Shown: piece after piece, positions 30,897 to 30,995 of the stretch
Position numbering within the stretch: the first letter of the stretch is position 1
Layout: the number at the start of each line of letters is the position of its first letter
From: an uncultured Lachnospiraceae bacterium
GTDB taxonomy: Bacteria; Bacillota; Clostridia; TANB77; CAG-508
Assembly: GCA_946637865.1 (NCBI GenBank)
Contig: CAMPBM010000001.1
Location: forward strand, 1 to 59,060
Direction: 5' to 3'
DNA: 59,060 bases
Made by a program: the position numbers and the translations under genes
Notes under the pieces: generated by a model
The model's input: the letters and a program-made list of their open reading frames with translations, nothing else
What the model was told of the DNA's origin: nothing
Database searches by the model: none

Positions 30897-30995
30897 ATTA
30901 TTATAACAATTTATATTTTGTCTATTAAGAATATACGTGTGTGTGTGTGTGTGTGTGTGTGTGTGTGTGTGTACTGCTCCAAGGGTTTTCGCCAT
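30897..30995 (-). other. 32-codon mini-ORF containing the dinucleotide repeat: MAKTLGAV(HT)6YILNRQNINCYK
   Basis: AAGGAG RBS 8 nt upstream of the ATG at 30995. (AC)18 is read as His-Thr codons. Translation is unproven. Confidence 0.15.
30937..30972. repeat. (GT)18 dinucleotide microsatellite
   Basis: 36 nt of uninterrupted GT, counted directly from the sequence. Confidence 0.98.

Follow-up and report, generated by a model that had tools for sequence, protein, structure and literature searches.

A polymorphic (AC)n tract in the leader mini-ORF of a Lachnospiraceae contig as a candidate frame selector, with related cassettes in chromosomes, phages, and an ICE-like element

What might a long, perfect dinucleotide microsatellite be doing in low-GC bacterial DNA, just upstream of genes for membrane and surface proteins? 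The stretch that raises this question, termed the window herein, consists of the 59,060 nucleotides (nt) of contig CAMPBM010000001.1 (assembly GCA_946637865.1, an uncultured Lachnospiraceae bacterium) and was analyzed over its whole 59 kb; it has ∼30% GC and a marked strand bias. At positions 30937 to 30972 it contains a perfect (GT)18 on the plus strand, which is (AC)18 on the minus strand, as detected with both Tandem Repeats Finder and a regular-expression scan. The latter found no other dinucleotide run of ≥5 units in the 59 kb, and (GT)18 is far beyond chance expectation, in agreement with an earlier reading made from the letters alone (the sequence-only reading), which had described the tract as uninterrupted and very unusual. 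We consider it moderately probable that the tract is a length-variable, slipped-strand frame selector within a putatively translated leader mini-open reading frame (mini-ORF) and that it switches the two genes downstream. The observations that carry this reading are the polymorphism of the tract, the geometry of the three frames, the predicted RNA structures, and the wide recurrence of the same design in other loci.

Read on the minus strand, the region is AAGGAG, 8 nt, ATG GCG AAA ACC CTT GGA GCA GT(AC)18 G TAT ATT. The AAGGAG motif (31009 to 31004) is the Shine-Dalgarno (SD) sequence of the leader ORF, 8 nt 5′ of the ATG at 30995, exactly where the sequence-only reading had placed it, and an SD-like sequence is present in the same position in every related cassette described below. 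Retranslation gave an ORF of 57 codons followed by TAG (30995 to 30822, minus strand; the long frame at n = 18), with the product MAKTLGAV(HT)6YILNRQNINCYNNNNSFSDVLKLEIRKNRGNRNIILR*; the 32-codon ORF ending in “...NCYK” that had been reported before was mistranslated. The TAG, at 30824 to 30822, coincides with the apex of a large hairpin, and 80 nt separate the end of the leader ORF from the ATG of the next gene, which places the repeat outside the regulated gene. A conserved 5′ anchor motif, AAAACCCTTGGAGCAGT (30973 to 30989, minus strand; codons K-T-L-G-A-V), abuts the tract.

The leader was rebuilt in silico for n = 6 to 24 repeat units. When n mod 3 = 0, the ORF continues in the long 57-codon frame and ends at 30824 in the hairpin apex, and this is the only frame that reaches the hairpin. 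When n mod 3 = 2, it ends at a TAA at 30925 to 30927 (minus strand), at +9 after the tract and 61 nt before the hairpin base, and when n mod 3 = 1, as in (AC)10, it ends at a TAA at 30911 to 30913 (minus strand), at +23 after the tract and 47 nt before the hairpin base. The gain or loss of a single unit does shift the stop codon, as had been claimed.

Alleles of the locus were obtained by an exact-protein look-up with the first downstream gene, which encodes 168 amino acids (aa). It returned metagenome contigs (contigs and loci carry L numbers here), at least one of which (L002, AUXO01) came from sheep rumen. Contigs L002 (2,506 nt) and L004 (1,513 nt) showed 0 mismatches to the window and a single 16-nt gap, which turns (AC)18 into (AC)10; L001 carries the (AC)10 allele as well. 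This allele is not an assembly collapse, since L004 comes from a k = 31 assembly and its 20-nt tract is flanked by unique sequence. In a third allele (L019 and L020), a degenerate 12-nt sequence, ATGCGCACACAC, replaces the tract and keeps the long frame, and the remaining leader is nearly identical. The window (n = 18) and the degenerate sequence are long-frame alleles, and (AC)10 is a short-frame allele. Tract length across strains, which the sequence-only reading had named as a check, therefore differs, and because the three alleles lie in otherwise almost identical DNA, the comparison indicates that the tract is hypermutable and that no other site in the locus is nearly as mutable.

The L019/L020 allele shows some features of its own. 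Its substitutions cluster at 30973 to 30989, with 3 in the 14 nt before the tract versus ∼4 in the other ∼400 aligned nt, and a promoter-like site (TTGGTA, 17-nt spacer, TATATT) spans the degenerate tract. In these contigs, gene calling splits the 168-aa gene into ORFs of 79 and 90 aa (495 to 993 in L019 and 470 to 968 in L020), and it may be disrupted in the strain with the degenerate tract.

The large hairpin that had been claimed downstream of the mini-ORF is real in that its arms (30781 to 30815 and 30823 to 30857) are 91% complementary. Extended to 30864 to 30775 (minus strand), it is predicted to fold into a stem of ∼42 bp with −48.4 kcal/mol (z = −12.4 versus shuffled sequences), and a U-run, UUUUUCUUAUU, lies at its 3′ side and partly within it; we propose that it is an attenuator or terminator. 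The long frame covers the entire 5′ arm and stops at the apex. When 30936 to 30700 was folded, the SD region of the first regulated gene (AGAGAAAGGGGGGAA, read at 30747 to 30761, minus strand; paired over 30761 to 30744) was predicted to pair with a CU-rich segment, UCUUUUUC (30889 to 30882, minus strand), and with 30935 to 30927. The CU-rich segment, a predicted anti-SD according to the pair table of the minimum-free-energy fold, lies within the long frame and would be translated through by the long-frame ribosome only; the segment at 30935 to 30927 lies directly 3′ of the tract and is read in all frames. At a small hairpin, AUUGUUAUAAUAAUAACAAU (30890 to 30911, minus strand), a block, AAATTGTTATAATAATAACARTTCTTTTTCTGATGT, is common to the window and to L021, a contig resembling an integrative and conjugative element (ICE). 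Searches of Rfam with the whole window at gathering scores and with 30600 to 31900 at permissive E values returned only chance hairpin matches to microRNA precursor models.

Which genes would such a leader control? The first (30742 to 30236, minus strand) encodes the 168-aa protein, with an N-terminal membrane helix and an NTF2/cystatin-like alpha+beta domain; its structural model (mean predicted local distance difference test score, 74.6) consists of a helix and a curved-sheet domain, and the NTF2/cystatin-like fold match is weak (best E = 0.014). The second (30170 to 28893, minus strand) encodes a 425-aa protein that carries a signal peptide and, at its C terminus, a membrane anchor. Pfam and PHROGs gave no function for either gene, and the 425-aa protein was without a match. 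A terminator-like hairpin with a U-run follows the second gene (28888 to 28845, minus strand; −23.2 kcal/mol, z = −6.7), and the switched operon probably ends there. Two BspA-type leucine-rich-repeat (LRR) proteins are encoded beyond this hairpin; given its position, the LRR and EF-Tu-like genes are likely separate transcription units, and the leader probably controls the first two genes only (30742 to 28893). The same-strand gene string of the sequence-only reading does begin with the gene at 30742, but probably does not form a single unit. Homologues of the 168-aa gene (L006 and L008 to L018; 39 to 66% identity) lie in differing contexts, and no repeat or similar leader was seen upstream of them, which indicates that the tract is not ancestral to this gene.

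The mechanism that we infer would begin with transcription from a candidate promoter, P1 (31067 to 31039, minus strand), which consists of TTGATT (31067 to 31062), a 17-nt spacer, and TGtTAATAT (31047 to 31039), is conserved in L001 and L019, and would place the leader start near 31032. A ribosome would load at the AAGGAG/ATG (31009/30995) and read MAKTLGAV and then the repeat as (His-Thr)n. Replication slippage would alter n, and the frame downstream of the tract would depend on n mod 3. At values of 1 or 2, translation would halt at the TAA at 30913 or 30927, the long hairpin (30864 to 30775) would form as a presumed transcription terminator, and the CU-rich segment (30889 to 30882) would remain paired with the SD of the first gene; termination, a translation block, or both would leave the operon OFF. 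With n mod 3 = 0, as in the window, the ribosome would cross the CU-rich segment and the whole 5′ arm and stop at the apex TAG. The hairpin and the SD pairing would then be melted and the two-gene operon (30742 to 28893) would be ON, with the membrane-anchored 168-aa protein and the 425-aa anchored surface protein as its products. The window allele is accordingly predicted to be ON and the (AC)10 allele OFF.

A precedent exists in Streptococcus gallolyticus, where the pil1 and pil3 leader peptides contain (GCAGA)n followed by a terminator, and where experiments showed that longer leaders let the ribosome destabilize this premature terminator (Danne et al. 2014, PMC3894217). In both systems a simple sequence repeat (SSR) with a unit that is not a multiple of 3 lies 5′ of surface-protein genes in a short leader ORF with an SD before it (ATG and ORF at 30995 to 30822 in the window), and the repeat number, which differs between populations here as well (18, 10, and the degenerate 12 nt), shifts both frame and leader length. 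In both, short leaders stop well before the stem-loop (≥28 nt in the pil1 type; 47 and 61 nt here) and long ones terminate at the stem-loop or inside it (at the apex here), and ribosome-mediated melting is proposed. They differ in the repeat, which is a 2-nt (AC)n of 10 to 18 units here and a 5-nt (GCAGA)n of ∼22 units there; in the hairpin, which is much longer in the window, where SD occlusion is also possible; and in the conserved 5′ anchor and the sharing of the cassette by chromosomes, phages, and an ICE-like element. Sequence homology to the pil1 leader (GCAGA repeats) is absent, and since the repeat unit and flanks differ, pil1 is an analogue and not a homologue. The slipped-strand phase variation proposed in the sequence-only reading is thus supported in part, in that tract length varies, one of three frames reaches the hairpin, the design recurs in unrelated loci, and pil1 offers a precedent; what probably does not stand is the whole gene string as the regulated unit, which is more likely to comprise two genes.

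Other systems share single elements with this scheme. In classical in-gene SSR phase variation, as in phasevarion DNA methyltransferases (PMC5909438), slippage likewise shifts the frame. There the repeat lies within the regulated coding sequence, an arrangement that is absent from the window and present in relatives fused to genes, such as the L120 methylase. The window repeat instead occupies its own ORF upstream, and slippage never shifts the frame of the regulated proteins. In Escherichia coli pyrBI leader attenuation and in MS2-type coupling, a ribosome on an upstream ORF opens downstream RNA structure. The phage relatives of the window show ATGA/TAATG stop-start overlaps and a predicted SD-sequestering hairpin, but the input would be a heritable, stochastic change in DNA length and not the supply of nucleotides or amino acids. 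In the Haemophilus influenzae hmw1A 5′ untranslated region (UTR), with RNase III (PMC12721329), and in the Helicobacter pylori tlpB G-repeat, with RepG (PMC8295292), the repeat itself pairs and expression scales with its length. These loci also have a transcribed repeat upstream of an adhesin or surface gene and a long leader hairpin close by; unlike them, the window repeat is predicted to be single stranded, and its geometry points to frame dependence. Attenuation of the his/thr type, which the sequence-only reading had admitted as a formal alternative, calls for a fixed run of cognate codons, mutually exclusive hairpins, and biosynthetic genes. That proposal does not hold up, as the codon number varies with n, relatives are read in a different frame as (TH)n, and the downstream genes encode membrane and surface proteins. 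Z-DNA formation by the tract, which that reading had also mentioned, is unsupported, and the scheme has no need of it.

Does the design recur? The cassette was defined as an SD sequence, an in-frame ATG 8 to 14 codons before the tract, a AARCCTTGGNGCWGT-like motif, (AC)n with n ≥ 7, early stops in two frames, and one long frame, and all of these elements are present in the window. Relatives were located by a search with the mini-ORF peptide and by a DNA-pattern scan of IMG/VR; metagenome and genome scans at the DNA and protein levels yielded just one locus each. The search with the 57-aa peptide found 35 small ORFs, the majority of which share ...[ST][LVI]GAV(HT)n while their N and C termini are unrelated, and a profile search of 1.84 billion cluster representatives gave 1,503 matches at E ≤ 0.001. 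Among 142 newly listed cluster representatives, 109 have the anchor motif, which begins within the first 20 residues in 106 of them; 102 of the 109 are ≤100 aa long. The few long representatives, with the motif fused N-terminally, are proteins of 550 and 2,916 aa and two prepilin-like proteins.

At the DNA level, the AARCCTTGGNGCWGT motif precedes (AC)n in ICE-like, chromosomal, and phage loci. The ICE-like contig L021 has a cassette with n = 12, located 3′ of a MobL relaxase gene. In chromosomal loci, n is 15 ahead of a prepilin-like gene (L023), 14 ahead of the gene for a 4,313-aa protein beside a SpaA/TED adhesin (L166), and 15 in L169. The exact-pattern scan of IMG/VR for GGNGCNGT(AC)7 returned 26 phage contigs, and in an unbiased (AC)11 scan the motif and its close variants predominated at (AC)n in low-GC contigs and were absent from (AC)n tracts of high-GC contigs and giant viruses. 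The conserved SD, in-frame ATG, anchor, and immediate stops in two frames together occur in at least 15 distinct flank types and ∼100 protein clusters. The phage tracts are also polymorphic, with n ranging among near-identical contigs from 11 to 18 (type 1) and from 7 to 16 (type-2 family); in six phage pairs n differs (18/17, 18/11, 17/11, 17/16, 14/11, and 16/15) with 0 mismatches in 1,200 flanking nt.

Cassettes fall into an attenuator, a coupling, and a fusion type. The window, L021, L023, L166, and L169 belong to the attenuator type, whose long frame runs to the apex of a hairpin with a U-run, ends within such a hairpin, or falls ∼13 nt short of it; the remaining frames stop 1 to 44 nt after the tract. 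In the coupling type, found in phages, the mini-ORF lies between a tail-fiber-module gene and a small gene just 5′ of the holin and endolysin genes, and one frame passes the SD of the next gene and terminates at the start codon of that gene, in the form ATGA, TAATG, or ATGTTAA; the exception is L134b, where it stops 17 nt within the next gene. When four phage sequence types were folded, the SD of the next gene was predicted to pair with codons 2 to 6 of that gene, with the ATG in the loop. In L155, the downstream gene has no SD of its own. The fusion type is represented by L120, in which (AC)12 lies in the 5′ coding region of a 268-aa phage DNA methylase (N6_N4_Mtase, 2.8e-34), and by the long proteins P0078, P0108, P0113, and P0158. 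The L120 gene (4958 to 5764, oriented coordinates), with the same type of anchor before the tract (AVTLDTL), is a candidate phase-variable phage methyltransferase.

Genes under cassettes encode tail-fiber-module proteins, the DNA methylase, prepilin-like proteins, and the 4,313-aa surface protein; these are typical contingency genes, which supports the frame-selector reading. The phage cassettes lie next to Peptidase_S74 and Gp10_C domains and then XhlA, holin, and amidase genes, i.e., in the tail-fiber/baseplate module. PHROGs and Pfam gave no function for the small phage proteins under the putative switches, and no phage in INPHARED was closely related to these contigs. Phage contig L134 has a pair of cassettes (4372 to 4399 and 5403 to 5432; n = 14 and 15), each preceding a paralogous small gene (120 to 123 aa, MIPQYTKRKEEM...), with two small ORFs between them, one of which is membrane-protein-like; this arrangement suggests combinatorial switching. 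Between L100 and L155, a difference of A7 versus A8 ∼150 nt past the tract truncates the downstream gene in L100 (41 versus 109 aa); it marks a second slippage site or else an error in sequencing.

Taken from these comparisons, the broader proposal, on which we are evenly poised, is that the window holds one copy of an undescribed, horizontally shared (AC)n frame-selector cassette comprising an SD, a start codon, the ∼15-nt anchor AARCCTTGGNGCWGT, a hypermutable (AC)7-18, and stops in two frames. In low-GC Firmicutes of the gut and rumen, their temperate phages, and conjugative elements, it would stand before contingency genes (tail-fiber-module genes, DNA methylase, pilins, giant adhesins, and surface proteins) or be fused to them, and its outputs would be terminator melting, stop-start coupling onto an SD-sequestered gene, and N-terminal fusion. 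It is the nucleotide sequence of the anchor that is conserved, since L100, L143, and L155 read the same anchor DNA in another frame, as KALRLY(TH)n; this also undermines a purely peptide-level conservation of LGAV. Such conservation may mean that the anchor helps set or limit slippage. A small RNA hairpin in the anchor (AGCC-TTGG-GGCT) was considered and rejected, as variants such as those of the window, L041, and L134 do not keep it.

Several observations weigh against the frame-selector reading. P1 is a weak match (8/12 plus TG) and falls under the promoter-scan threshold, and the best promoter-like match of the region is instead a site downstream of the tract and inside the mini-ORF, P2. 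The hairpin at 30864 to 30775 is of a length unusual among intrinsic terminators, a simple terminator scan did not flag it, and its U-run can pair with an upstream A-run. The attenuator-type loci L021, L023, L166, and L169 were fetched via called ORFs and are biased to the long frame. In the DNA-pattern scan of phages, which is unbiased for frame, the read-through frame was found in only 6 of 24 complete tracts, a proportion that would equally be given by a mostly-OFF switch, a random switch, or a neutral tract. Finally, the conserved 5′ anchor has no role in the frame-selector model.

Could the tract act on transcription instead? P2 (30928 to 30900, minus strand; TTAATA, 17 nt, TGtTATAAT), which the small hairpin at 30890 to 30911 overlaps, is the best minus-strand promoter-like match in the region (10/12 with an extended −10), and the TTGTTATAAT block is kept in L021. 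If P2 were the real promoter, the tract would end 9 nt upstream of its −35 element, and tract length would alter the phasing or distance of A-rich or activator sites, as with (TAAA)n at nadA or (GAA)n at Mycoplasma vlhA, with the mini-ORF being incidental. We regard this as unlikely: promoter-like matches are no commoner in the region than in shuffled sequences (8 observed versus 10.6 expected), and a transcript from P2 would still include the anti-SD segment and the hairpin. Moreover, the phage tracts lie inside an operon 27 to 40 nt from the next start codon, where there is no room for a promoter and the SD/ATG/frame-stop design is retained nonetheless. A promoter-spacer switch of the H. influenzae hifA/B type, in which 16 to 18 nt is ON, was rejected, as the TTGGAG...TATATT spacer equals 2n + 5, i.e., 41 nt at n = 18 and 19 to 41 nt over the natural n of 7 to 18; 17 nt occurs only in the degenerate L019 allele.

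A second possibility, which we judge quite unlikely, is that (AC)n acts at the RNA level by its length and not by frame, either as an unstructured CA-rich translation enhancer or as a target of a small RNA or protein. Length-dependent SSR control in the 5′ UTR is documented (PMC8295292; PMC12721329), and the nucleotide-level conservation of the motif despite the frame change in L100, L143, and L155 hints at a role as DNA or RNA. However, the analysis turned up neither a partner RNA nor a structure that involves the tract, which is predicted to be unpaired, and action by length would need neither the start-codon overlap nor the apex stop of one frame that are seen across unrelated loci.

Equally, the tract could be a hypervariable but neutral microsatellite with no effect on expression, the geometry of ORF and hairpin being coincidental. 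The near-random frame distribution in phages (6/24) fits this, as does the lack of an upstream repeat at the 168-aa homologues in other species. We nevertheless find neutrality quite improbable, in view of the recurrence of SD, in-frame ATG, anchor, and immediate stops in two frames over the flank types and protein clusters counted above, of the repeated ending of one frame at the next start codon or the hairpin apex, and of the long frame retained by the degenerate allele. Lastly, a role of the peptide itself, with (His-Thr)n as a metal-binding peptide, the precursor of a modified peptide, or a His/Thr-sensing leader, would fit the residues before the tract, which look conserved as [ST]-[LIV]-G-A-V, with a Gly codon whose third base varies over all four nucleotides, but is very improbable given that His and Thr always come from perfect (AC)n and never from mixed codons, that n varies from 7 to 18 between identical flanks, that L100, L143, and L155 encode KALRLY(TH)n, that C termini are unrelated between loci, and that the controlled genes encode surface, tail, or methylase functions and not His or Thr biosynthesis.

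The locus is chromosomal, with genes for MgsA, RuvA, a RecN-like protein, LysS, TsaD, trigger factor, and ClpX as neighbors. The elements upstream of the leader on its own strand are, in order, a tyrosine recombinase gene (31787 to 32662), a 338-bp palindrome (31162 to 31499), and two copies of a 37-nt dispersed repeat. An invertible promoter operated by the adjacent recombinase was considered and rejected, since the sole spanning inverted repeat is 16 nt long with one mismatch, which is at chance level in AT-rich DNA. Direct repeats of ∼55 to 65 bp (31510 to 31563 and 32697 to 32760; 84 to 85% identical, 1,197 bp apart) flank the recombinase gene and could be a duplicated promoter region or att-like sites. 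The palindrome, between the recombinase gene and the leader, is near perfect, with nested arms of 60 and 51 nt and a GC-rich central hairpin, and folds as DNA with −115 kcal/mol (z = −22); two short-read contigs, L001 and L002, break precisely at its center. It could, as an idea only, be a single-strand promoter or an origin-like element of an island; a search of viral contigs with the palindrome core gave no match. The dispersed intergenic repeat (∼37 nt per unit; core GACCGTCCCCAAATGTTTCA, with a small TGTTTCA/TGAAACA hairpin) occurs at at least five sites (7263 to 7340, 31115 to 31160, 34104 to 34143, 37062, and 49257 to 49301), in tandem copies and in both orientations, and had no match in Rfam. 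Farther downstream, the gene for the “EF-Tu-like lipoprotein” (24349 to 25443, minus strand) is apparently frameshifted: a 185-aa ORF with a lipobox and a weak match to EF-Tu domain 2 is followed by clear domain-3-like sequence in another frame. This split gene could be a pseudogene, a sequencing error, or recoding.

In the literature that we searched, no (AC)n leader cassette, GAV(HT)n peptide, or dinucleotide switch in phage tail modules was found, and, as far as these searches show, the S. gallolyticus pili are the only case in which experiments have demonstrated phase variation through a leader-peptide repeat. For phages, it was not until 2025 that contingency loci were proposed, with short homopolymers as the repeats: a preprint on coliphages describes homopolymers of ≥6 nt that lie inside genes and are underrepresented in tail-fiber genes (Gomez et al. 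2025, PMC12633550). Like the loci of T2/T4 and other phages, the cassettes would be hypermutable repeats that generate population heterogeneity in phage genomes; unlike them, they are long dinucleotide microsatellites in a dedicated upstream ORF and lie in the tail-fiber module. The wider family, proposed here, is the more interesting part of this work compared with the single locus. If the cassette works as proposed, the leader-peptide switch would be a general and portable device in anaerobic gut and rumen Firmicutes. Phages would carry dedicated microsatellite switches in their tail-fiber module and on a methyltransferase, which would imply bet-hedging over host range or restriction evasion, and a simple sequence signature would be at hand to find phase-variable genes in metagenomes, where strain heterogeneity is otherwise invisible.

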